A stretch of 64,000 nt of DNA from an uncultured Staphylococcaceae bacterium (GCA_964384805.1 CAYLLO010000001.1:5623-69622); one strand, 5' to 3'. Shown: positions 22,570 to 62,917, numbered from the stretch's first letter. Made by a program: numbers and translations. The notes: generated by a model not told the origin, from the sequence alone.

Positions 22570-22750
22570 ATTTTACCTCCTTTTTAAATTAAATTTAAAC
22601 TAAGACACGCCATTGAGGTGCGGAAAACAGCTTAAAACCTCTTTTGTGCGGTTGCTAGAAATCGCAACATATGTATTATACCATTAAAGTCTTTTTTTTG
22701 CAAATTATATATAAATATTTTTTTAGAGTCCGTAAATCTATTTAATTGAG
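22570..22750 (-). promoter_or_regulatory. probable L21 leader (ribosomal-protein leader RNA) upstream of rplU
   Basis: GC-enriched structured approx. 180-nt 5' UTR between the ppdK terminator and the rplU start; position typical of the Firmicute L21 leader. Confidence 0.35.
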
Positions 22751-31879: not shown

Positions 31880-32185
31880 CTTCTTAATTTAAAAAGTCCT
31901 TAAAATATAACTTTCAGTTATACTCTAAGGACGAAAATTTCGCGGTACCACCTTAGTTCAAAATCAATAGCATTAAGATACTACTAATTTTGCACTTAAT
32001 AATCATTAACGCTGATACACGGCACTTAAGTACTGCTAGTTCCCTAAGGCATCTCCAAGGCTACCTTCAATTTTCTAATTATAAGACTTTTCACCAAATT
32101 GTCTCTCTCTTTCAAAATTAGATAAACTTACTCTTCCTCTTCTTTGATTTTAATATCGTTCTCATTATATCAAAATCTTTAAAAT
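31880..32185 (-). promoter_or_regulatory. T-box riboswitch leader of valS
   Basis: Conserved T-box sequence GGTGGTACCGCG on minus strand (plus 31941-31952) overlapping a terminator hairpin GTCCTTAGAG...TTTTAAGGAC (plus 31896-31932) plus U-run. Confidence 0.7.
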
Positions 32186-32204: not shown

Positions 32205-34037
32205 TTAATATAAATCACCAGGCATTTTTAGTTCTCCACGAGGAGATAAAGAAATATCAAATACTTTGATTCCTTCTGGACCAGTTAAGCGTTTATATTG
32301 TTGGGCTTTGAAACGACGTAAGAAACGATCATAATATGTTTCAGCTTCATTTTCATTTAAACAGAATAGTTCACACATTAAGAAGACTAAGCGTTCTTTA
32401 CTAGAGCCATTAGCTAATAATTCATATAAAATGAAATCATTAATTTCATATTTACCCAAAAATTCTTCAGTAGATTGTGAACTACTAATAAGTTCAGGAC
32501 TTATCATCGCTTGACAAACTTCTTCAAGTTCATCTGCAACTTCAGGATAATATTTAATGAAATGTTTTGTTAAATGACGAATAGCAGTTTTAGGTAGTCC
32601 TGAATTTACATTATACATTGCCATATGATCTCCATTAAAAGTAGAAAATCCTAAAGCTATTTCACTCATATCTCCAGTTCCAACTACTAAACTATTATTT
32701 GCATTAGCAAAATCCATTAATACTAATGTTCGATATCTAGCTTGTGAGTTTTCATATGATATGTTTTTTGTTTCGCCATCGTGGCCAATAAGATTTAAAT
32801 GATGACGTACTTCTTCGTTGACATCTATTAAATGATAATCGATTTCTAATTTTTTCATTAAGTTTATAGAGCGTTCTTTGCTAACATCGCTAGTCCCCAT
32901 AGCGGGCATCGTAATTCCATGAATAATTTTACGACTTAAATTAAAACGATCACACATATAAACCGCCATAAGTAAAGCTAAAGTTGAATCTAACCCTCCG
33001 CTAATTCCGATAACTACACCTTTTGCCCTACTATAGTTAAGACGATTATATAATGCATTGCTGATAACTTTTAAAATTTCATCTGATTGTTCAATTGTAG
33101 TTATGAAAGGAGTATTATTATATTTAGTATCAAGACAATAATTATCATATTTTATATCATTAATAGTTACAACTCCAATGTTATTGCCAACTTTATTTTT
33201 TGAAATTAGACGATGAAATTTAATAGTTTCTAAGTCAATATCAACATAAGAAATTTTACTATTGTAATCATTTAAACTATTTTGATTTAAGAGTAAATTA
33301 CCATTACAACAAACAATTTGTTCACCAGGAAATAAAATATCACTACTAGTTTCAGTAACTCCAGTTGAGGTATAAATATAGGCAGCATTACCAATTAAAC
33401 TAGCACTTTTACATAATGATAAATGTTCAGCATTTTTATTAATGCTATAGGAACTATTTCCAAGATTAAAAACAGCTTCGGCTCCATTATAATATAATAA
33501 ACCATTAACTGAAGGTAAATGCAAATAATCTTCGCCGATTTCAACTCCAAATGTAAAACTTCTATTAGGAGTACTGAATAACATAGTTCCAATTGGGACT
33601 GTTTGTTCAAATATTTTTATTTCTCCTATTTCATTAAAAAAATCACTACCATCAGTAAAATATTTTGCTTCACATGCTTCTTTGGTATTATTAAGATTAA
33701 ATTTAGGAACGATGCCTAAAATACGGTTACCTTGAATAACATAAGCAACGTTATAAAGACAACTATTATATTCTAAAATTGATCCTACAATGATTAAATG
33801 TTCATCATTATGTTCTAAAATATATTTTAAAGCTAAGTTTGCATCTTCAATAGTTTGTCGATTGGTAAACCAATCCCCTAAATTAGTTCCAGTAATTGCA
33901 AGTTCGGGAAAAACTAAAATAGCATTTTTTTTATCTTTTCCGATAATTTTAACAATTTCCATGGCATTTGAAAAAGTATCCCCTAATTTAGTTTTCGGTA
34001 CTACTAGACCGACTTTAATGAAACTATTTTTCTTCAT
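32205..34037 (-). CDS. nadE: glutamine-dependent NAD+ synthetase
   Basis: N-terminal CN-hydrolase domain plus C-terminal NAD synthase PP-loop GISGGLDS; 610 aa. Confidence 0.9.
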   Translation of the reverse strand: MKKNSFIKVGLVVPKTKLGDTFSNAMEIVKIIGKDKKNAILVFPELAITGTNLGDWFTNRQTIEDANLALKYILEHNDEHLIIVGSILEYNSCLYNVAYVIQGNRILGIVPKFNLNNTKEACEAKYFTDGSDFFNEIGEIKIFEQTVPIGTMLFSTPNRSFTFGVEIGEDYLHLPSVNGLLYYNGAEAVFNLGNSSYSINKNAEHLSLCKSASLIGNAAYIYTSTGVTETSSDILFPGEQIVCCNGNLLLNQNSLNDYNSKISYVDIDLETIKFHRLISKNKVGNNIGVVTINDIKYDNYCLDTKYNNTPFITTIEQSDEILKVISNALYNRLNYSRAKGVVIGISGGLDSTLALLMAVYMCDRFNLSRKIIHGITMPAMGTSDVSKERSINLMKKLEIDYHLIDVNEEVRHHLNLIGHDGETKNISYENSQARYRTLVLMDFANANNSLVVGTGDMSEIALGFSTFNGDHMAMYNVNSGLPKTAIRHLTKHFIKYYPEVADELEEVCQAMISPELISSSQSTEEFLGKYEINDFILYELLANGSSKERLVFLMCELFCLNENEAETYYDRFLRRFKAQQYKRLTGPEGIKVFDISLSPRGELKMPGDLY

Positions 34038-35847
34038 TTTGGTTCTCCTTGTATAAATTATTTTTTATAATATAATCGTATATTTCATTAGGTAATAAAC
34101 TTTGATCAAAAGTATTACGAAAATCAGAAGATGAAATATCCCCTATTTCATAATCAACTACCAAAAAATGATTTCGGTAATTATTTAAAAGCTTATTAGA
34201 TTTAAAAATTTCTTCAATATTAAAGCCTGAACGATTTAAAACAATAAAATTGTTTTGTTTAATTAGCTTTTTGGCATCTATCCAAGTAGTAATAAATGCT
34301 AAAGAATCAGCACCTATCACAAACCAAGGGTGGTTATATTCTTTTAGAGTTTCGACACTTCCTTTAAATTCGCGATTTTTTTCACTGGTTATTAATTCAA
34401 CATTTGATATATTCTTAATTAATAATTTTAACATTGCTATGCGTTCATTAAAAGATAAAAGTTGTTTGTTATGGTAGTGATAATCATCGCTGTTAGGAAC
34501 CAATAAAACTTCTGCATCTAATTGTTCAGTTAAAAGTTTTAAAATATTTTGATGAGCAAGAGTTGGAGGGTTGAAAGAACCACCAAAAAAAACCTTTTTT
34601 TTGCTATCTTTTATTATTTTTTTTGTTTCTTGAAAATTATTAATTCTATCGATGACTGCATTGGCAATTTTTTTCCCTGAAGCAATTGCTTCGACAATAG
34701 TTTTAGGACCAGTAAAAAAGTCTCCTCCAAAATAGTAATTTAAGTAATTATCGTTTTTGATAGAAATATGAGCATTAACAAAAAAATCTTTATTTGATTG
34801 GGCCCCTGTTGCCATAACAATTGTATCACATGGAAAACAACTAATAGCTCCTTCTATAGGAATAGCATTTTGACGTTTATCTTCTTCTTTCTCTGTTAAA
34901 CGCATTTTTTGAACTTGTAAACCAATTAAAACTTCATTTTTAACAATTGGTTGGATGGGAGTCCATAATTCAGCAAGATTAACTCCTTCATTAAGAGTGG
35001 CTTGAATTTCTTTCTTTGAAGCAGGTGAATTTTCAATATTACGGCGATAGACAATTGTTACATTATTTTTTAGACGTTTTAAAGCTCGTGCTGTATCCAT
35101 TGCGACATTACCTGCTCCAATGACAATAATATTTCGTTCTTTTATTTCACACTTATTTTGGTTATAAGCTTCCAAAATATCAAGTCCATAAAAACATGAT
35201 GGAAAATTTTCATTCCAAATATTAATAGGTATTTGAGCTCCTGTACAAATAATTTTAAAGTCATATTTTTCTAAATCTTTAATGCTTAGATTTCTACCTA
35301 ATTCATATTCTAAACATATTTTAACATTTAAATTTCTTAAAACACTGTCAAAATCTAAAAAAGTGTTAGAAAGATGTCTAAAATTAGGAACAAATTTATC
35401 TATAGTTCCACCTATCTTTTTTTCTTTATCAAAAAGAATTACTTTTACTCCTGCTCTAGCAAGTATTAAACTAATAGTTATTCCGGTAATCCCAGCTCCT
35501 ACAATTGCTGCAGTCTTAGAGTCTTTAACATTTTTAGAAACCGGTAAATCTTGTAAATAACTACCTTTATACATATTAGACAATAAATATTCTACTTTAC
35601 CTATTTCTACTGGTTTACCTTTTATGCCTCTAACGCATTGACCCTCACATTGATGATCATGAGCACATAAACTACCACAAAGCTCAGGCATAATTTGCGT
35701 TTTTAAAAGTTCACGATAAGCTTCATGGTATTGTTCTGATGAAACGTAATTCATAATACTAGGAATATCATTATGAATAGGACATCCTTTAACACATGAT
35801 GGATTTTGACATTTTAAGCAATAATCAGCAAGTTCTTTTATTATCAT
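34024..35847 (-). CDS. fusion protein: GltD-family FeS/FAD NAD(P)H oxidoreductase (N-term, approx. 410 aa) plus nicotinate-nucleotide adenylyltransferase NadD (C-term, approx. 190 aa)
   Basis: N-term Cys cluster CLKCQNPSCVKGCP, two dinucleotide-binding motifs (IVGAGITG, VIGAGNVAMD); C-term FFGGSFNPPTLAH (H/T-x-G-H nucleotidyltransferase motif); continuous 607-aa ORF. Confidence 0.7.
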   Translation of the reverse strand: MIIKELADYCLKCQNPSCVKGCPIHNDIPSIMNYVSSEQYHEAYRELLKTQIMPELCGSLCAHDHQCEGQCVRGIKGKPVEIGKVEYLLSNMYKGSYLQDLPVSKNVKDSKTAAIVGAGITGITISLILARAGVKVILFDKEKKIGGTIDKFVPNFRHLSNTFLDFDSVLRNLNVKICLEYELGRNLSIKDLEKYDFKIICTGAQIPINIWNENFPSCFYGLDILEAYNQNKCEIKERNIIVIGAGNVAMDTARALKRLKNNVTIVYRRNIENSPASKKEIQATLNEGVNLAELWTPIQPIVKNEVLIGLQVQKMRLTEKEEDKRQNAIPIEGAISCFPCDTIVMATGAQSNKDFFVNAHISIKNDNYLNYYFGGDFFTGPKTIVEAIASGKKIANAVIDRINNFQETKKIIKDSKKKVFFGGSFNPPTLAHQNILKLLTEQLDAEVLLVPNSDDYHYHNKQLLSFNERIAMLKLLIKNISNVELITSEKNREFKGSVETLKEYNHPWFVIGADSLAFITTWIDAKKLIKQNNFIVLNRSGFNIEEIFKSNKLLNNYRNHFLVVDYEIGDISSSDFRNTFDQSLLPNEIYDYIIKNNLYKENQNEEK

Positions 35848-35907
35848 AACTTATTCCTCCTGCTTATTTATTTTAACATATAAACAAAAAAATAGGTAAA
35901 AAATTGA

Positions 35908-39558: not shown

Positions 39559-41230
39559 GACTGGGGCGCTTCGCTTCCAGTCTCAAACACCTTATTAAAG
39601 GAAGCCTCCCAAAAATTTATTTTTTGTGATATAATATTATTGATAGTAACACACTACAAAGCACGATGAGGTGAGTGGTGAATAAAAGTTTTATGACTTT
39701 CCACTTTTATATCCCGTATAATTATATGTGTAGTTATTCTGTTAAGCACAAACAATTAGGTAACCAAGCCTGTACACTTATCTTTGTGGAATCAAAAGAT
39801 ACCTCGCTAGGAATAACAGTCACTGTTACTATCACCTTGTTTTACTAGGTAAGTAAAAAGATGGAGGTATTATTATGATGAAGATTGTGTATCCAATTTG
39901 CTGTGGTTTGGATGTGCACAAAAAGATTTTAGTTGCTACTATTGCTAAAACTGATTCTTTAAATGTAACAACTTATGAAACTAAAGCTTTTTCTACTATC
40001 AATTCTGATATTTTAAAATTAAAACAATGGTTATTAGATAATAATTGTCTTAATCTTTGTATGGAATCCACTGGTAAATATTGGATTCCTGTTTTTAATT
40101 TACTTGAGGATTCAATTAAAGTCTGTCTTACCCATCCTAAATACGTTAAAGCGATTAAAGGTAAAAAGACAGATAAGTAAGACTCTAAATGGATCGCTGA
40201 TTTATTTAAACACGATCTTGTTCCTTGCTCTTTTATCCCTCCTAAAGATATTAGAGAATTACGTGATATTTGTAGATACCGCTATAAGCTTGTTTGTAAT
40301 CGTACTTCTGAAAAAAACCGTGTTCAAAACTCTATGACTGTTTCTAACATTGGGATTGCTAATATTGTTACCGATCCTTTTGGTAAAACAGCTACTAATG
40401 TTATGAAATATCTTCTTGAACATGATAATAAAACTATTGATCATGATCATGTTAAATCTCTTCTAAATAAAGGTTTGAAAAAGAAAGCAGATGAAATTAT
40501 TGATTCCATTACTGGAAGTAATATTTCTTCTGACCAATCTTTTAAATTAAATATTTGTTATCAACACATTGAAGAACTTGATAATTATATTTCTATCCTC
40601 GAAGATGAATTAATTAAACGTTCCGCTAAATATAATTCTTTTATTGAACTTGCCATGCAAATACCTGGAATTCAACGTATTTCTGCTATTTGGATTGTTA
40701 GTGAAATCGGTGTAGATATGGATGTTTTTAAAGATGCCAAACATCTTGTTTCTTGGGCCGGTCTTTCTCCTACCAACAATGAATCAGCCAATAAAAAATA
40801 TTCAACTAAAATATCTAAAGCAGGTGTTTACATCAAGCCGCTGCTCATTCAATGTGCTCTTTGTGCGATCGCTAATAAAAAGAATCTTTATTATAAAAAT
40901 AAATATGATAACATTAAATGAAGACGTGGACACAAGAAAGCTATAATTGCGATTGCTAGAATGATGCTAACTGCTATTTATTATATGTTTTCAACTGGTG
41001 AAACTTTTGCACCTTATGATATCAATGATTTTGATAAACCAAAGAATAAAAAACAAGTTCTTAACACAACTAATACTTTAGAATATCTAAAAAATTTAGG
41101 ATTAGATATATCTTCAATAGAGAATCAACTAAATAATTTTAACGAAAATTCACAGCAATTATAACTAAATATAATGGACTTTAAAAATGACGTTGCTCAC
41201 CATTTTTAAAAATAGTCAATATTGGGCTTT
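39559..41230 (+). mobile_element. IS110-family insertion sequence (decayed), inserted between pbp and murE
   Basis: About 315-nt GC-richer leader with terminal hairpin gactgg...ccagtc and extended -10 TGATATAAT (39628-39636), then IS110-type transposase reading frame; ends approximate (IS110 elements lack clear IRs). Confidence 0.6.
39875..41164 (+). pseudogene. IS110-family transposase with two in-frame nonsense codons
   Basis: Three ORF fragments (39875-40180, 40334-40921, 40961-41164) are all in the same frame; they are separated only by TAA at 40178-40180 and TGA at 40919-40921; N-terminal DEDD-type region (CGLDVHKK) and C-terminal IS110 core (IPGIQRISAIWIVSEIG...AGLSPTNNESANK). Confidence 0.7.
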
Positions 41231-46659: not shown

Positions 46660-46845
46660 ATGAATGATAAATTTAATAATTCATTGTTAAAAATGAAAAA
46701 ATATTTTATGGGATTAAAATCAATAATAATAACTATTCTAATATGGCAATTCTTTTTAACTCTTTTTACATTTACACTTGCTAATTTTATTATTTTAATT
46801 ATAGTTGGAATTATTTATTTACTTAACTTATTCATTTTTATCTGA
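46660..46845 (+). CDS. small two-TM membrane peptide (hypothetical)
   Basis: ATG with GAGGTG RBS 7 nt upstream; 61 aa, two hydrophobic helices; overlaps 3' end of convergent gene. Confidence 0.25.
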   Translation: MNDKFNNSLLKMKKYFMGLKSIIITILIWQFFLTLFTFTLANFIILIIVGIIYLLNLFIFI

Positions 46846-47757
46846 AAAAGTTTTGATAAATTGTTCAATATTATTACAATTTTTTACAAAACTCTCCAAA
46901 TTAATATAGCTCAAATTTGAAACATTAATACGTTTAATGTATATAAAAATCACTAAAAATCTAAAATAATTATAATAAAAATCATCCCTATGACTATAAT
47001 AATCATCAAAAATTATTTTTTTAAAATCAATATTAAAATCTTTATTTTCAACATAGAATTTAGCAAAATCTAGACTATCAATTCCTATTTTACCATTTTC
47101 TACACTCGTCAAATAAGCACTTCCTCTACTCATTATTATATGGTCAATTTTAGGATTGTTATGGACAAATACGTATTCAACACTTTCTTTATCTTTAATA
47201 GCCATAATAATTTTTTTTTGTAACTTAAGGAGCTCTTTTTTGGCTTCTAAAATAATATAATAGTTCTCTAATACCACTAAATTAGATGGTGTAATTTCCT
47301 TTGTTTCGATACTTCTAATAAAATTTTCCAACAATTTAAATTTATAATCTAATTGTTTAGTAATTTCCTCAAACTTTGGACGTGAATTATTTACCGATAA
47401 TTGTCTTTTAATAATTGTACTATCATGTAATCTATCTAAAGCATTAAACATATTATATGCAAGCGAATCTTCAATTGTTACAAAATTATCAATATAATCA
47501 TTTAAATAATAATTTTGATAATTAAAACTTGATATAAATTTACGATTATGATTAATAGTCGGGTACAATACATTAGATACTCCTTGATTAGATAAATAGC
47601 TGTATTTATTCTCGATTTCATTAGATACTTGTTTTATAAAAAAACAATTTTCTTTATCACAAATAATTTTATAAGTTTTATCTGTAATAGGCCAAACATC
47701 TTGAACTTTAATTCCATAATTATTATATAAATTATCCTTTATATTCATATTTTTCAC
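46828..47757 (-). CDS. CotS-family (kinase-fold) spore coat protein, YsxE-like
   Basis: 309 aa; weak kinase-like HxNxxxxN...IDSLDF segment; immediately downstream of SpoVID-like gene as in the B. subtilis spoVID-ysxE operon. Confidence 0.4.
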   Translation of the reverse strand: MKNMNIKDNLYNNYGIKVQDVWPITDKTYKIICDKENCFFIKQVSNEIENKYSYLSNQGVSNVLYPTINHNRKFISSFNYQNYYLNDYIDNFVTIEDSLAYNMFNALDRLHDSTIIKRQLSVNNSRPKFEEITKQLDYKFKLLENFIRSIETKEITPSNLVVLENYYIILEAKKELLKLQKKIIMAIKDKESVEYVFVHNNPKIDHIIMSRGSAYLTSVENGKIGIDSLDFAKFYVENKDFNIDFKKIIFDDYYSHRDDFYYNYFRFLVIFIYIKRINVSNLSYINLESFVKNCNNIEQFIKTFSDKNE

Positions 47758-48451
47758 TAATTATAATACGATGGTTATCTAAAAAATTATATTTTTGATT
47801 TTCTTTTAGAACATCTTCATATAAAAAATTATGATTTTGGCATAATTCTTTAACCTGTTCATTTTTATTATAATAAATAACTTTTATGACACTCTTTTTC
47901 TCTACTCTTTTTTTAGGAGCTTCTTCTAAAAAATTATCATTTTTAACTTTTAGTTTACTAGTTAAGATATCATCAATTTGATCTGTAATGCTTTCCTTTA
48001 TCACTTCTTCTTCTGTTACACTGTTACAATCAATACTATTAACTATTTCATCAGAAATAGTTAAATCTTTTTTTTCTTCCAATAATTGTTCAGCAAATTC
48101 TTCTGTTCTAGTTTTTTCATCCATTAAATCATAATAAACATCTATATCAAATGTTGCTTCTATTCCTCTTCCTGCTATTTCATAATATTCAAAATTATTA
48201 ATATTAACATTTCTAATTAAAGGAATTCCATTTGTGAAAACAATTTCAAAAGGGATTTGATTTTCAAAATTATTTAAACCATTATTTTCCTCAAAGTCCT
48301 TACTATTAGAATAATACTCACCACTTATTTTAACTTGACCTGTTAAAACTTTATCGGTTAAATTATATTCTAAAATCTCTATATTTACAGTCGAAATCCC
48401 TACCATTTGTTCTAATTTAGTAAAAGCATTACTATTAATTTGAATATTCAT
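47732..48451 (-). CDS. SpoVID N-domain-like morphogenetic protein (SPOCS/DUF3794 type, no LysM)
   Basis: Repeat pattern VLTGQVKISGEYY ... EIAGRGIEATFDIDV resembles SpoVID/SipL N-terminal domain; acidic C-terminal half. Confidence 0.4.
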   Translation of the reverse strand: MNIQINSNAFTKLEQMVGISTVNIEILEYNLTDKVLTGQVKISGEYYSNSKDFEENNGLNNFENQIPFEIVFTNGIPLIRNVNINNFEYYEIAGRGIEATFDIDVYYDLMDEKTRTEEFAEQLLEEKKDLTISDEIVNSIDCNSVTEEEVIKESITDQIDDILTSKLKVKNDNFLEEAPKKRVEKKSVIKVIYYNKNEQVKELCQNHNFLYEDVLKENQKYNFLDNHRIIISEKYEYKG

Positions 48452-48499
48452 ATTATCGACACCTTTCTGTATTATTATATGAATATTTATTATTTTTAA

Positions 48500-48546
48500 T
48501 AACTAAAAAGCTAGTTAACTTTTTTATTTAGTTAACCAGCCATAAA
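48500..48546 (-). terminator. rho-independent terminator after anti-sigma gene
   Basis: Stem gctggttaac/gttaactagc plus T-run on minus strand. Confidence 0.4.
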
Positions 48547-48553
48547 TAGATAT

Positions 48554-50038
48554 TTATCTTCTAAACACTTTTAATTGGTCTAATTTATTAATTCCTATAA
48601 ATTGACCTTTATCATCATAAATATAATTATATATTCGAGTAACTCCTCCAAATGTAAATGAACTTGTTGCTGGAGAATACATCATACTTTCAAAATATTC
48701 TACATTCCAAATAAGATTATTATTTTCAATTATAAAACTTGAACCTATTGCAGAATCAACCGAATAAAATGTTTTTAAATCACCATTATTGTTGTCACAT
48801 ATAAATAATACTGCTTTATAATGATTTTTAAATAAACTCAATATATACTCATCAGTAATTAATTCATGTTTTTTTACTAGTTCAAATATTGTGTCAAGTA
48901 TACCTATAGTTTCTCCCCTTCCATAATACATGTTATCAAAATCAAAATAAGGGAGTGAATAAGCTGATAAATATACTTGTCCTCCAAATTCAATTACATC
49001 ATTAAAGAAATATCTATATTTTTCGTCATAATAACTAATTTCAAATTCTAGCGTACCATCAAAATTAATCTTAACAAACTTAGTATTTAAATCTCTATCT
49101 TCTAAATATACTAAATAGTATTCTTTCAATTTTATGATATTTTCAATTCTATAATTGTTAAAATTATTTTCAAAATTATCAGTAATAATTCCATTTGAAT
49201 TCAAATTGTAGATTTTTAAATAATCAGTTTGAAAAGTTTTATTAGCAAAAGCAGTTAAACTATTATCATTATTAATAATAATTTTATAAAATCTATTCGA
49301 ATCTTCAAACTCTTGTTGCCAAACAATTTTACCATCAGTGCTAATTTTCGTGATATATGTTTTACTTGGATATCTCGTTGAATAATAAAACAATTGTTTT
49401 CCATAAACGATTAAATAATTTTCTTTTTCAATATATCCATCAATTGAATAATAAATATCTAGATTCCAACATTTTTTTCCATCTTCGTATTTTGTAAATA
49501 TATATTTAGTACAATCTAATTCCTGTTCATTATTTACTACCATATACTCATCATACTTATAATATACTCCAGTAATAGGATTTTGTTCTTGTTTGCGTAA
49601 CTCTTCCCAAAGTTCCCAAACACTAGTTAGTTCACTTGAAGAAATATTATCTATTTCGATACTATAACCTGACACTTTACTTTTAATACTTTCAACAATA
49701 ACTTCACCTGTTTTTTTATACTCAAATTTGTTGGTTGTGATGTCTTTATATATTTCTTTTATTTCATATCTTGTAAGACCATCAAGTGATAATTCATTTG
49801 ATTTAAAAAATTCCACTGCATTTTGATATTCTTTAGCTTCCACTTTAACTGTATTCACACTCAAACCTATAATAAAAGCTAACATAATAAAAATTATTGA
49901 AATAAATGCAACCTTGGAAAAATAAAATCTTCTAGTATTTTTGGGCTTCTTATATTTTTGATATATACCATTTTTATAGTCATCAATATTATAATCCGGC
50001 AAATCATTTTTCAAATTGGATAAATCTTTATCAATCAT
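48554..50038 (-). CDS. anti-sigma factor-like membrane protein with large Tyr/Trp-rich extracytoplasmic domain
   Basis: Short N-terminal cytoplasmic segment, single TM, approx. 430-aa extracellular domain; 8-nt overlap with upstream ECF sigma gene. Confidence 0.5.
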   Translation of the reverse strand: MIDKDLSNLKNDLPDYNIDDYKNGIYQKYKKPKNTRRFYFSKVAFISIIFIMLAFIIGLSVNTVKVEAKEYQNAVEFFKSNELSLDGLTRYEIKEIYKDITTNKFEYKKTGEVIVESIKSKVSGYSIEIDNISSSELTSVWELWEELRKQEQNPITGVYYKYDEYMVVNNEQELDCTKYIFTKYEDGKKCWNLDIYYSIDGYIEKENYLIVYGKQLFYYSTRYPSKTYITKISTDGKIVWQQEFEDSNRFYKIIINNDNSLTAFANKTFQTDYLKIYNLNSNGIITDNFENNFNNYRIENIIKLKEYYLVYLEDRDLNTKFVKINFDGTLEFEISYYDEKYRYFFNDVIEFGGQVYLSAYSLPYFDFDNMYYGRGETIGILDTIFELVKKHELITDEYILSLFKNHYKAVLFICDNNNGDLKTFYSVDSAIGSSFIIENNNLIWNVEYFESMMYSPATSSFTFGGVTRIYNYIYDDKGQFIGINKLDQLKVFRR

Positions 50039-50531
50039 TTTTATAATTCCTTTCTATAAATTCTTTAATAAGATTTCTTGCCCGTTCTAATCGTTTCTTT
50101 ACTGCAGATTCAGAAATTTTTAGGATATTAGAAATATCTTTTATTTTCATATCATCATAATAATGAAGAATTATAATTGTTTTATACTTTTCTGGTAAAG
50201 TATCCACGATTTTAGATAAATCATAGGGCAATTCTTCTTTATTTTTTGTTGGAATATTAATTATATAATCGTTATTTTTAATCACTTTTTTATATGAATA
50301 TGACTTAACAAAATTAATAGATTCATTTATTGTAACTCTAATTAAGAAATATTTAATATGTTCGTTTGACTCAAACTTTTTATTAGATTCTAAAAGAGCA
50401 ACATAAGCATTTTGCATTATGTCAATTGAATCTTCTTTATTTTTTGTGTAACCATATGCTATATATAATAGTTCTTTCGCAAACTCATTATATATCAACT
50501 CAAATTGCTTTTCCGATATTTTCATAATCAT
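50031..50531 (-). CDS. ECF-type RNA polymerase sigma factor (sigma-70 regions 2 and 4)
   Basis: 166 aa; region 2 (YGYTKNKEDSIDIMQNAYVAL) and region 4 HTH (IKDISNILKISESAVKKRLERAR). Confidence 0.8.
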   Translation of the reverse strand: MIMKISEKQFELIYNEFAKELLYIAYGYTKNKEDSIDIMQNAYVALLESNKKFESNEHIKYFLIRVTINESINFVKSYSYKKVIKNNDYIINIPTKNKEELPYDLSKIVDTLPEKYKTIIILHYYDDMKIKDISNILKISESAVKKRLERARNLIKEFIERNYKND

Positions 50532-60731: not shown

Positions 60732-62917
60732 TATATTTTAAATTTGCCTATGTCTATGCTTTTCACATAGAAACGTGTCATACGCATTTGAGCATTAGCT
60801 ACAATATTATTTTTATTAGCAAAAAGAGATTGAAAATTAAAGTTAATAATACTTGAATTTACTTCTAAAGTAGAAGGTTGATTCCAAATATCGGAATAAC
60901 GTCCATTAACAAATTTCTGCAAATAAAGTCGAGTTAGTAAAAGTTCATCTTTTTTGAGATAATTTTGTTCTTCTTGTTGTTCCAAAACTTCTAACATATC
61001 TGTAAACGTTGGAAAATCTTTAGCTTTTAGTTTATTAAAATTACTTTTGGCAGTAATTCCTTTATATTCATAAGTTTTGATAACCAAATTATTTATAAAT
61101 TCAATAATGGTATTACTAGCATTTTCTAAGACAATTTTAAAAAAAGATTCTAACATTTTTAAATGTGTATTGAAAGTTATCATCGGTTCGGCAGGTTTTC
61201 CATCTTCTGTTAAAATTTTATAAATATGAAAAGGATTAATACGTCCCTCTTTAGCATTACCCACATCTATAATATTACCACCTAAATTTTTAGTTAGATT
61301 AAGATACTCTGCCTCAGGATCACAAATAATAATACGAGTGTTATTAGACCACTCATTAACAATTAAGTTCTTTAAAAAGAAAGACTTGCCACTTCCACTT
61401 TTTCCAATTACCATCGCATTAGAATTATGATATAAATTATCTCTTTTCCAAATATTAAAAATAAATGGATAGTCATTATTTTTATTTTTTCCTAATAAGA
61501 TACCTTTATCTTCCATAACACATGTTCTAACAAACGGGAAAACAGCCGCTAAAGTCATACTATTTAAACCTCGTTCATAGTTTTGACAATATGATTGAGG
61601 ATTAACAGATGCATTAATAAATCCCTCTTTTTGTTTACAATACATATTTGAACTTCTAAAATTATCATTTAATAAAATTTGTTTAACATTTTTTTTATAA
61701 TTTATATTATTCATATAGTTATAAGCTGTAATAGTAATATTAACATCATATAAACTTTCATTTTCTGACTGTAAACTGTCTAATAACTCTAACATAGTTT
61801 CTTTATGAATATTTGCAGCCTTATAATCGCTTGCTTTTTCACTTAAAAATTCTTTGGTTTCCAATTCGGAAAGACAATTATCTATTCTTTTTATTGCTTT
61901 ACTTTTTTCAACTGGTTTAATTCTCATAACCACTTTAGTATCAGGAATATTAAATATATTATGCCCCCAAGCATTTTTTACTTTCAAAGGATAATCAGTA
62001 ATTGAAAAAACTGAAGCCTCTATATGATCTATTAGATACTTATTACTGGCATAAACAATCTTTTTAGGCATAATCCAAGTTAATAACTCATCACTTTTTA
62101 AATTATCAACTTCACGCTCATCAAAATTACGTGAGTTATTATATTTTAAAAAAACAGCAACTTCTTTTTGATTTAAAACTTTAGTATCTAAACCACATTT
62201 ATTTATTTCTGAACTAATATTAATAGTCGACATTTCAATCTCTGATTTTTTATTACTATAAAGAATCAAATAATAATCAGAAACATATTGTTTAAAAATA
62301 TTATTCAAATTATCAATATAATCTATTCGTTCTTTTAAAATATTACCTCGTATTTTATTAATCTTATTTACTGGTTCTTTTTTATTCTCTTGTATTTTAT
62401 TAAATAAATCATTGGAAAAACTATCAAAATTTACTGGTCTATCTATTTTTACAATATCAATAACTTGATTTATTTCCAATTGTTTCAAAGCATTAGAAAA
62501 ATAATTTATATCTAAATCTTGTTCTTCAATATCTTCTATTCCAAAATTTTTTTGTCCTATTTTTAATACTTTGGCGTATTTATTATCCGTAAATTTTATC
62601 ACTCCCTGTTCATCTATTTCTTCTAGTAAAAATAACTTATTCATTTCTTCTAAATTTGTATTATCAAATTTCTTTTTTCCTAAAATAAATTTTAAAGTAT
62701 TAATAATAAAATTATAGAAAAAGCCATCAGGAGTAGGGATAAACATAACTATATAACTTAGTAAAATAATTAATGATATTACTAAAAAACCTTTTATTAA
62801 AAGAATAAAAACAATGAAAAATATAACTAAACTAATTAAAATATCACTAATTGTAAAGGATTTCCAAATAGTATTTTTTATTTTTGTTTTTTTAGGTACT
62901 ATGCGCATTTTTTTCAC
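60731..62917 (-). CDS. VirB3/VirB4-fusion conjugal transfer ATPase, N-terminal part
   Basis: N-terminal two-TM VirB3-like segment; Walker A VIGKSGSGKS and VirB4-type Walker B IIICDPEAEY; ORF runs on into intron sequence until stop at 60731. Confidence 0.7.
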   Translation of the reverse strand: MKKMRIVPKKTKIKNTIWKSFTISDILISLVIFFIVFILLIKGFLVISLIILLSYIVMFIPTPDGFFYNFIINTLKFILGKKKFDNTNLEEMNKLFLLEEIDEQGVIKFTDNKYAKVLKIGQKNFGIEDIEEQDLDINYFSNALKQLEINQVIDIVKIDRPVNFDSFSNDLFNKIQENKKEPVNKINKIRGNILKERIDYIDNLNNIFKQYVSDYYLILYSNKKSEIEMSTINISSEINKCGLDTKVLNQKEVAVFLKYNNSRNFDEREVDNLKSDELLTWIMPKKIVYASNKYLIDHIEASVFSITDYPLKVKNAWGHNIFNIPDTKVVMRIKPVEKSKAIKRIDNCLSELETKEFLSEKASDYKAANIHKETMLELLDSLQSENESLYDVNITITAYNYMNNINYKKNVKQILLNDNFRSSNMYCKQKEGFINASVNPQSYCQNYERGLNSMTLAAVFPFVRTCVMEDKGILLGKNKNNDYPFIFNIWKRDNLYHNSNAMVIGKSGSGKSFFLKNLIVNEWSNNTRIIICDPEAEYLNLTKNLGGNIIDVGNAKEGRINPFHIYKILTEDGKPAEPMITFNTHLKMLESFFKIVLENASNTIIEFINNLVIKTYEYKGITAKSNFNKLKAKDFPTFTDMLEVLEQQEEQNYLKKDELLLTRLYLQKFVNGRYSDIWNQPSTLEVNSSIINFNFQSLFANKNNIVANAQMRMTRFYVKSIDIGKFKI

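Follow-up and report, generated by a model that had tools for sequence, protein, structure and literature searches.

A conserved fusion of a ferredoxin:NADP+ oxidoreductase-type flavoprotein with a NadD-like adenylyltransferase in an uncultured Staphylococcaceae bacterium

A 64,000-nucleotide (nt) stretch of DNA from an uncultured Staphylococcaceae bacterium (GCA_964384805.1, CAYLLO010000001.1:5623-69622; this whole stretch is referred to below as the window, and positions are counted from its first letter) encodes on its minus strand, at 34024..35847, a protein of 607 amino acids (aa) in which an iron-sulfur (FeS) flavoprotein is joined to a NadD-like nucleotidyltransferase. The fusion is genuine, is neither an artefact nor recent, and represents an architecture that is new and uncharacterised and whose two halves come from known enzyme families. 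We propose, with a probability of roughly 0.6, that the gene encodes a bifunctional protein, consisting of a ferredoxin:NADP+ oxidoreductase (Fnor) and a NadD, that was born from a coupled gene pair.

The gene is a single uninterrupted reading frame from ATG to stop, and its full length is conserved in homologues. Pfam search of the product recognised Fer4_20 (residues 6-90; 87 bits, cut-off 25.8), Pyr_redox_2 (residues 113-369; 78 bits) and CTP_transf_like (PF01467; residues 420-578; 77 bits, cut-off 21), and thus bore out the original prediction, which had been made from the sequence of this DNA and described one continuous 607-aa open reading frame (ORF) combining an FeS flavoprotein with a complete NadD-like module. 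The Cys cluster and the motifs GAGITG, GAGNVAMD and GGSFNPPTLAH that it had listed are likewise all present in the translation. The junction between the two modules had been placed at 35230-35260, without it being stated that the gene lies on the minus strand; because of this orientation, that span falls inside the FAD/NADP module, and the true junction is at about 34594-34650.

An independent Logan contig encodes a protein that agrees with this one at every residue, and a search of 5.8 billion proteins produced 19 homologues of about 600 aa (36-96% identity) that combine the Fer4_20/Pyr_redox set with PF01467. Profile search against 1.84 billion representatives at 50% identity matched 15 clusters end to end (571-617 aa), and the fused architecture is kept in these 15 cluster representatives down to 30-36% identity, which contradicts the suggestion of a recent gene fusion. 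The alignment of the fused representatives shows little or no variation in the eight Cys residues, the GxGxxG motifs and the NadD motifs. The original prediction had also allowed for a lost stop codon or an assembly artefact, and the junction codons AGC AAA AAA AAG GTT TTT TTT GGT (34594-34612, minus strand), with adjoining A8 and T8 runs, could in principle invite indel errors. Yet KKKVFFGGSF-like junctions occur in the same frame across many independent assemblies and in the 15 divergent clusters, which refutes both alternatives, and relatives carry overlapping fnor and nadD genes, the ancestral state. The two runs form a slippage-prone spot located exactly where the stop and start codons of the relatives overlap. 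A literature search found no paper describing NadD fused to an NfnB- or GltD-type protein, in agreement with the earlier statement that no characterised fusion of NadD with an FeS flavoprotein was known. In databases the combination goes by generic names only; the NCBI relative MBQ8293173.1, for example, is called just 'FAD-dependent oxidoreductase', a label which hides the only recognisable NadD at this locus and which our analysis corrects.

The N-terminal module consists of a Fer4_20 domain with two proposed [4Fe-4S] clusters (residues 1-100; 35548..35847, minus strand), delineated from the Pfam match and from the alignment to Pyrococcus furiosus NfnI-B (PfNfnI-B; PDB chain 5jca_L), and of an FAD- and NADP(H)-binding Pyr_redox_2 module (residues 101-399; 34651..35547, minus strand), for which Pfam, the PDB alignment and Foldseek were used. 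The Cys cluster comprises C10/C13/C18/C22 and C57/C61/C67/C71, whereas GAGITG and GAGNVAMD correspond to residues 117-122 (35482-35499) and 244-251 (35095-35118), respectively. Mapping through the 5jca_L alignment points to C10, C13, C18, C22, C61, C67, C71 and E86 as the cluster ligands, and C57 is conserved too. In this alignment, C42 and C45 of PfNfnI-B match C10 and C13, E126 matches E86, R201 matches R157, R382 matches R325, and Y267-R268-R269 is aligned with Pf R324/R325, such that Pf R325 corresponds to R269. Among the homologues, the counterparts of Pf E126, R201, R325 and R382 vary little or not at all. The bifurcation Arg, Pf R333, is replaced by S277, and the window protein has a gap at the position of Pf R253.

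The description of this module as GltD-like in the original prediction holds only loosely, because NfnB chains are the better match. Among PDB sequences, the module is most similar to NfnB of Thermotoga maritima (4ylf_B, 6e-47) and P. furiosus (5jca_L, 3e-45), and the matches to GltD chains (1e-31) and dihydropyrimidine dehydrogenase (DPD; 5e-22) are weaker; Foldseek search with the AlphaFold model likewise placed 5jca_L on top (E 1.3e-30, TM-score on the target 0.74). The CA_C0764 protein of Clostridium acetobutylicum (Cac_0764), once annotated as a glutamate synthase beta subunit, has been shown experimentally to be an Fnor that is encoded monocistronically, depends strictly on NADP(H) and does not bifurcate electrons (PMC9365771). 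A 2025 study set the 'cluster 2' Fnor apart from NfnB by three features, namely the lack of the 25-31-residue N-terminal extension, the lack of an Arg at the position of PfNfnI-B 333, where most members have Ser or Thr, and the lack of an upstream nfnA gene (PMC12221290). In the window protein only nine residues precede the first Cys, vs 41 in PfNfnI-B, and in all fused and split relatives there are 9-16. All NadD-linked relatives have Ser, Ala or Leu where PfNfnI-B has Arg333. Furthermore, phmmer search with an NfnA sequence gave no match, either in the 64 kb of the window or at any of the fnor-nadD loci, whereas the same query, as a positive control, detected nfnA in 73 of the 80 GTDB loci of NfnB-like proteins among the matches listed. 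The GTDB scan was seeded with the full-length alignment and used the pattern GAGN[VT]AMD, which is common to all GltD/NfnB-like proteins; the only relevant locus among the matches listed was one of the split loci described below (L008). With its short N-terminus, Ser277 and no nfnA, the module thus displays all three published Fnor features, and assignment to NfnB or GltD fails. These features indicate a stand-alone Fnor of the Cac_0764 type; by its match scores, the module is closer to NfnB than to GltD.

The competing view, that the N-terminal domain belongs, as small or beta subunit, to a larger complex of the NfnAB, GltBD, DPD, YgfK or AegA kind with its partner encoded elsewhere, is in our estimation very improbable. 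YgfK, GltA, GltD and AegA, which share this fold, are indeed among the NCBIfam matches, but all score far below their cut-offs (e.g., 215 vs 472; for the GltD models TIGR01318 and TIGR01317, 197 vs 483 and 116 vs 448, respectively). There is no gltB-like ORF among the annotated genes of the window, and the three features listed above speak against such a subunit as well.

The C-terminal module (residues 419-607; 34024..34593, minus strand), recognised by Pfam, NCBIfam and PDB searches, contains the GGSFNPPTLAH motif at residues 422-432 (34552-34584; TLAH, 429-432), a conserved Trp, W522, presumably the pyridine-stacking Trp of NadD structures, and the SSSDFR motif at residues 572-577 (34117-34134). 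GGSF(N/D)PxTxxH, W522 and S572...R577 show little or no variation across 16 fused and 5 split proteins. Every nucleotidyltransferase match in NCBIfam is a NadD model (NF000842, 2e-30; TIGR00482, 1e-29), and the PDB matches are exclusively NadD or nicotinamide mononucleotide adenylyltransferase (NMNAT), the best being Bacillus subtilis NadD (1kam, E 5e-12). The module has no Cys at all and hence carries no cluster of its own. By its sequence, it is a divergent, motif-complete NadD.

The genomic context is in line with this assignment. As originally predicted, the fusion gene lies immediately upstream of the gene for glutamine-dependent NAD+ synthetase, nadE (32205..34037, minus strand; 610 aa; NCBIfam NF002730, 481.6 bits vs the equivalog cut-off of 473). 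The nadE ATG sits within the 3' end of the fusion ORF, and the resulting overlap of 14 nt suggests translational coupling. Since a glutamine-dependent NadE is coupled downstream, the natural reading is a route from nicotinic acid mononucleotide (NaMN) through nicotinic acid adenine dinucleotide (NaAD) to NAD, and the synteny murD-nadD-nadE in a metagenome-assembled genome (MAG) of Anaeroplasmataceae suggests that this NadD is the housekeeping copy. A role of the C-terminal module as FMN adenylyltransferase serving the flavoprotein was considered and rejected, given the NadD-only matches, the coupling to nadE and the separate RibF; the window has a gene for a canonical RibF at another place (55062-56003), which makes such a role unnecessary. 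We give hardly any credence to the view that the gene is an artefact, due to a lost stop or a frameshift at the A8/T8 junction, or that its C-terminal domain is an FMN adenylyltransferase, a phosphopantetheine adenylyltransferase or a cytidylyltransferase: the homopolymer runs and the sub-cut-off NadD equivalog scores (see below) would fit it, but the constant frame of the junction, the restriction of matches to NadD or NMNAT, the adjacent nadE and the presence of RibF all speak against it.

The nearest unfused homologues are Fnor-like proteins of about 403-423 aa, and in each of the seven loci examined (L003, L008, L089, L090, L091, L092 and L093) a separate nadD of 183-189 aa is located directly downstream. 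The spacing ranges from a 10-nt overlap in L003, where the ribosome-binding site of nadD is inside the upstream gene, through a 3-nt gap in L093 to a 63-nt gap in L092. The next gene is nadE in five of the seven loci, and the remaining two contigs end earlier. Among fused relatives at 42-44% identity, the order fusion gene-nadE-valS-folC is kept, in one case also with murE-mraY-murD upstream, and in L008 and L089 the fnor-nadD-nadE trio is preceded by genes for pullulanase and CdAMP_rec instead of murD. The occurrence of the trio in two different surroundings indicates that the cassette moves as a unit.

In a neighbour-joining tree of Fnor domains (100 bootstraps, with support read for the NadD-linked clade as a whole), all NadD-linked Fnor domains form a single clade with 100% bootstrap. 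This clade is separate both from long-N-terminus NfnB-like proteins and from clostridial monocistronic Fnor-like proteins, such as P0048, which has no nadD nearby, and in this tree, which was built without Cac_0764 and other assayed enzymes, it is sister to the short monocistronic clostridial-type proteins. Inside the clade, fused and split forms are interleaved, and the fusion probably arose from a fnor-nadD pair more than once. A metagenome scan that used the NadD motif as its seed yielded 64 decidable loci, 9 of them fused and 6 split, in addition to 16 loci whose upstream sequence was of insufficient length for a decision. In 54 of the 64 decidable loci nadD is still paired with nadE, and the fnor-linked NadDs are the closest to the window NadD. 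Judging by their names, the contigs stem from gut habitats (metagenomes of giraffe and human gut).

A separate observation concerns the gene preceding fnor. In L092 (1376-3326), which encodes the split NadD-linked protein P0134, a uracil-DNA glycosylase gene is found directly 5' of the Fnor-like gene, and the same is true of P0048, the distant clostridial-type stand-alone protein (L005, 7250-9239). This shared neighbour may be left over from an earlier genomic arrangement.

The junction itself (residues 400-418; 34594..34650, minus strand), defined from the AlphaFold models and the homologue alignment, is a Lys-rich linker of 19 residues and the least conserved segment of the protein; among the fused homologues, 2-19 of its residues are aligned, at low identity. 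The two domains flanking it diverge at similar rates, in line with a fusion that is real and old. In one competing scenario, the two genes are unrelated operon neighbours with overlapping stop and start codons that were fused and split repeatedly by small indels, without functional consequence. The poorly conserved linker, the 10-nt overlap in split forms with the ribosome-binding site within the upstream gene, the interleaving of fused and split forms in the tree and the orthologous nadD-nadE pairs that lack fnor would all be expected under this scenario. Nevertheless, we consider it quite improbable, because every examined member of the Fnor clade, i.e., the seven split and all fused ones, is attached to nadD, the trio is found in two neighbourhoods, and chance adjacency should have decayed over a range of 30-40% sequence identity. 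Moreover, fifteen divergent fused clusters persist.

The structure models bear on a further possibility, namely that the two halves communicate. The AlphaFold model obtained with an alignment of 14 sequences has a mean pLDDT (predicted local distance difference test) of 82.9 and a pTM (predicted TM-score) of 0.79, and the one obtained with 16 more diverse sequences reaches 88.1 and 0.85, respectively. A single long helix (residues 384-415, pLDDT of about 90) joins the end of the flavoprotein to the first NadD strand. Because the pTM is 0.85 although the larger domain accounts for only about 68% of the chain, a defined placement of the two domains relative to each other appears to be predicted. 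Foldseek search against solved structures found no chain spanning both domains.

Such an arrangement would suit a protein in which the Fnor-like module is mainly regulatory, reading the occupancy by NADP(H), the redox state of the flavin and FeS clusters or oxygen damage to the clusters, and switches or destabilises NadD accordingly, with little metabolic role as an Fnor. The strict tie of an entire Fnor clade to nadD in two contexts, the recurrence of the fusion, the apparently confident inter-domain arrangement in the model with its continuous helix and the lack of any Cys or redox cofactor in NadD itself are consistent with this view. So is P0133, a fused cluster representative that retains the Cys ligands, the FAD GxGxxG motif and all NadD motifs but has GSSK in place of GAGN and FNK in place of YRR, which suggests retention for a role other than NADPH turnover. 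On the other hand, the full Fnor catalytic set is strongly conserved in nearly all members, as expected of an active enzyme, the linker is variable, and we know of no precedent for an FeS-flavoprotein regulator of NadD; a mainly regulatory module accordingly strikes us as rather unlikely. The related proposition that the Fnor-like flavoprotein gates NadD as an internal sensor of redox state, NADP(H) or oxygen, and that NAD synthesis would thus be under direct post-translational control by the state of ferredoxin and NADPH or by the integrity of the clusters, we put forward only tentatively, as something we doubt but take seriously.

Under the preferred reading of a bifunctional Fnor-NadD protein, the N-terminal module (residues 1-400) would exchange electrons between NADP(H) and an external ferredoxin by way of its two [4Fe-4S] clusters and its single FAD, and, with no NfnA partner, electron bifurcation is not expected. 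The C-terminal module (residues 419-607) would act as the housekeeping NadD and convert NaMN and ATP to NaAD and pyrophosphate, and the coupled NadE would then amidate NaAD to NAD+. What the sequences show is the identity of both domains, complete motifs for cofactor binding and catalysis, conservation of the fusion and the strict adjacency of fnor to nadD; activity of both halves is an inference. As for the origin, an old nadD-nadE pair would have gained fnor in front of it in one sublineage of low-GC gut-type Bacilli, followed by repeated fusion and fission via small indels at the overlapping stop and start codons.

Substrate channelling between the two active sites was considered and rejected as an unlikely purpose of the pairing, since NadE and NAD kinase act in between. 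The pairing is therefore more likely to serve 1:1 co-production and physical association of the two proteins. Contact between them would let the redox state of NADP(H) and ferredoxin, or the integrity of the oxygen-labile clusters, affect NadD and hence NAD synthesis, and the idea that NadD activity is coupled to the sensing of redox state or NAD(P)H is offered here only as a hypothesis.

Several observations weigh against the bifunctional reading. There is no biochemical reason that directly connects the two reactions, and the membership of the N-terminal module in Fnor rests on the published features and on the homologues, not on an alignment with Cac_0764 itself. The NadD equivalog cut-offs are narrowly missed by the C-terminal module (TIGR00482, 103.7 vs 112.45; NF000842, 105.8 vs 167), which we read as the mark of a divergent NadD subfamily. 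The variability of the linker in length and sequence and the interleaving of fused and split forms fit a nearly neutral fusion. In the Anaeroplasmataceae MAG (L094), the order is murD-DUF2188-nadD-nadE, with no fnor, and in the metagenome scan fnor is missing upstream of nadD in 49 of the 64 decidable loci, of which 45 have nadE as the very next gene. Fnor-less nadD-nadE pairs of this kind imply that NadD does not need the flavoprotein and, together with the variable linker, keep a nearly neutral fusion in play. Finally, with the motifs of its NADPH site lost, the N-domain of P0133 cannot be an ordinary Fnor, and this degenerate site hints at a role of the domain beyond catalysis. With respect to the Anaeroplasmataceae locus, we also note that the slot between murD and nadD, where the window has the Fnor module, is occupied by a 67-aa DUF2188 gene (5718-5921 of L094).

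Comparison with characterised systems places the two halves within known families and sets the whole apart from them. With the Cac_0764-type Fnor (PMC9365771; PMC12221290), the N-terminal module shares the Fer4_20 plus Pyr_redox_2 layout of about 410 aa, the short N-terminus, a non-Arg residue at the position of Pf Arg333, the absence of a neighbouring nfnA and the conserved contact residues for FeS, FAD and NADP(H). Unlike it, however, the window module is covalently joined to NadD, or translationally coupled to it in close relatives, the NadD-linked proteins form a clade of their own apart from the monocistronic clostridial ones, and the counterpart of Pf Arg253 is missing in the window protein. 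NfnB of NfnAB (5jca_L and 4ylf_B) is the best solved-structure match by both sequence and fold and has the same cofactor residues, including the Glu ligand, but the window protein has neither the N-terminal extension of about 30 residues nor an NfnA partner gene, nor does it have Arg333, which in NfnB is thought to be needed for bifurcation (PMC12221290). With bacterial NadD, represented by B. subtilis 1kam, the C-terminal module has in common the CTP_transf_like fold of about 185 aa, the (H/T)xxH and SxxxxR motifs, the conserved Trp and the nadE neighbour, whereas the redox module fused at its N-terminus and the first motif, GGSFNPxTxAH, with Thr for the usual first His, are distinctive. Eukaryotic NMNAT, with its GSFNPITxxH motif, likewise has Thr in this place.

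The combination of a pyridine-mononucleotide adenylyltransferase with a second nucleotide-acting or nucleotide-sensing domain is also seen in NadD-HD (NF005519/PRK07152, a 361-aa profile, positions 2-187 of which match the NadD part of the window protein), NadR and NadM-Nudix. The partners in these proteins are hydrolase, kinase or repressor domains, and none of them, to our knowledge, is an FeS flavoprotein.

NadD is essential and is recognised as a target for antibacterials, and we know of no regulator that links it to redox; stand-alone NfnB-like Fnors, for their part, were recognised only in 2022-2025. The attachment of a whole Fnor clade to NadD offers a testable lead that pyridine-nucleotide synthesis is wired to the NADP(H)/ferredoxin balance in gut-type Bacilli. 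If the flavoprotein is a sensor, this would be a previously undescribed mode of regulation of NAD biosynthesis in small-genome anaerobic Bacilli and would provide a physiological role for the entire NadD-bound clade of NfnB-like proteins. If the link is neutral, the locus would still illustrate neatly how overlapping genes can be fused and split time and again.

In the window, the genes 5' of the fusion ORF are murD, mraY and murE, and a full cell-wall gene cluster is present. The LepA sequence has a 100% match only on an NCBI contig, and the closest relatives bearing a name are 'Bacilli bacterium' MAGs. A gap of 60 nt (35848..35907, minus strand), read from the sequence, separates murD from the fusion gene and contains a strong Shine-Dalgarno sequence, AGGAGG, 8 nt 5' of the fusion ATG, as well as a possible extended -10 element (TGTTAAAAT); inspection of the gap by eye revealed no Rex-type box. 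Downstream of nadE, the T-box leader of valS (31924..32153, minus strand; Rfam RF00230, 125 bits vs the gathering score of 93) marks the next transcription unit, and the terminator scan found a terminator-like hairpin at 31932-31896 (minus strand), before valS. Consensus promoter and terminator sites between 31.8 and 39.9 kb were no more numerous than in shuffled sequences, and because of this the operon boundaries are to be taken as presumptive.

Several other features of the window deserve mention. Between murE and the gene for a penicillin-binding protein (PBP/ftsI), an IS110-family transposase is encoded on the plus strand in two ORFs (DEDD_Tnp_IS110, 39875-40180; Transposase_20, 40334-40921), and this split transposase is probably a disrupted copy. 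Group II intron domains were identified with Rfam at 59888-60702 on the minus strand (D1-D4, 60499-60702; D5/6, 59888-59972), with no reverse-transcriptase ORF between them, and are flanked by an ORF for a VirB4/TraG-like P-loop ATPase (60731-62917) and a 188-aa ORF (59412-59978); the intron may be an ORF-less one that interrupts a conjugation gene. A gene for an extracytoplasmic function (ECF)-type sigma factor (50031-50531, minus strand) is followed by ORFs of 494, 239 and 309 aa without Pfam matches (the whole region spanning 46828-50531), which may represent an anti-sigma or envelope module. Finally, the RNA family scan located two elements that, like the T-box, help to place the organism although they are ordinary for Bacillota: an L21 leader (22593-22663, minus strand) and a class B RNase P RNA (51945-52368, minus strand).

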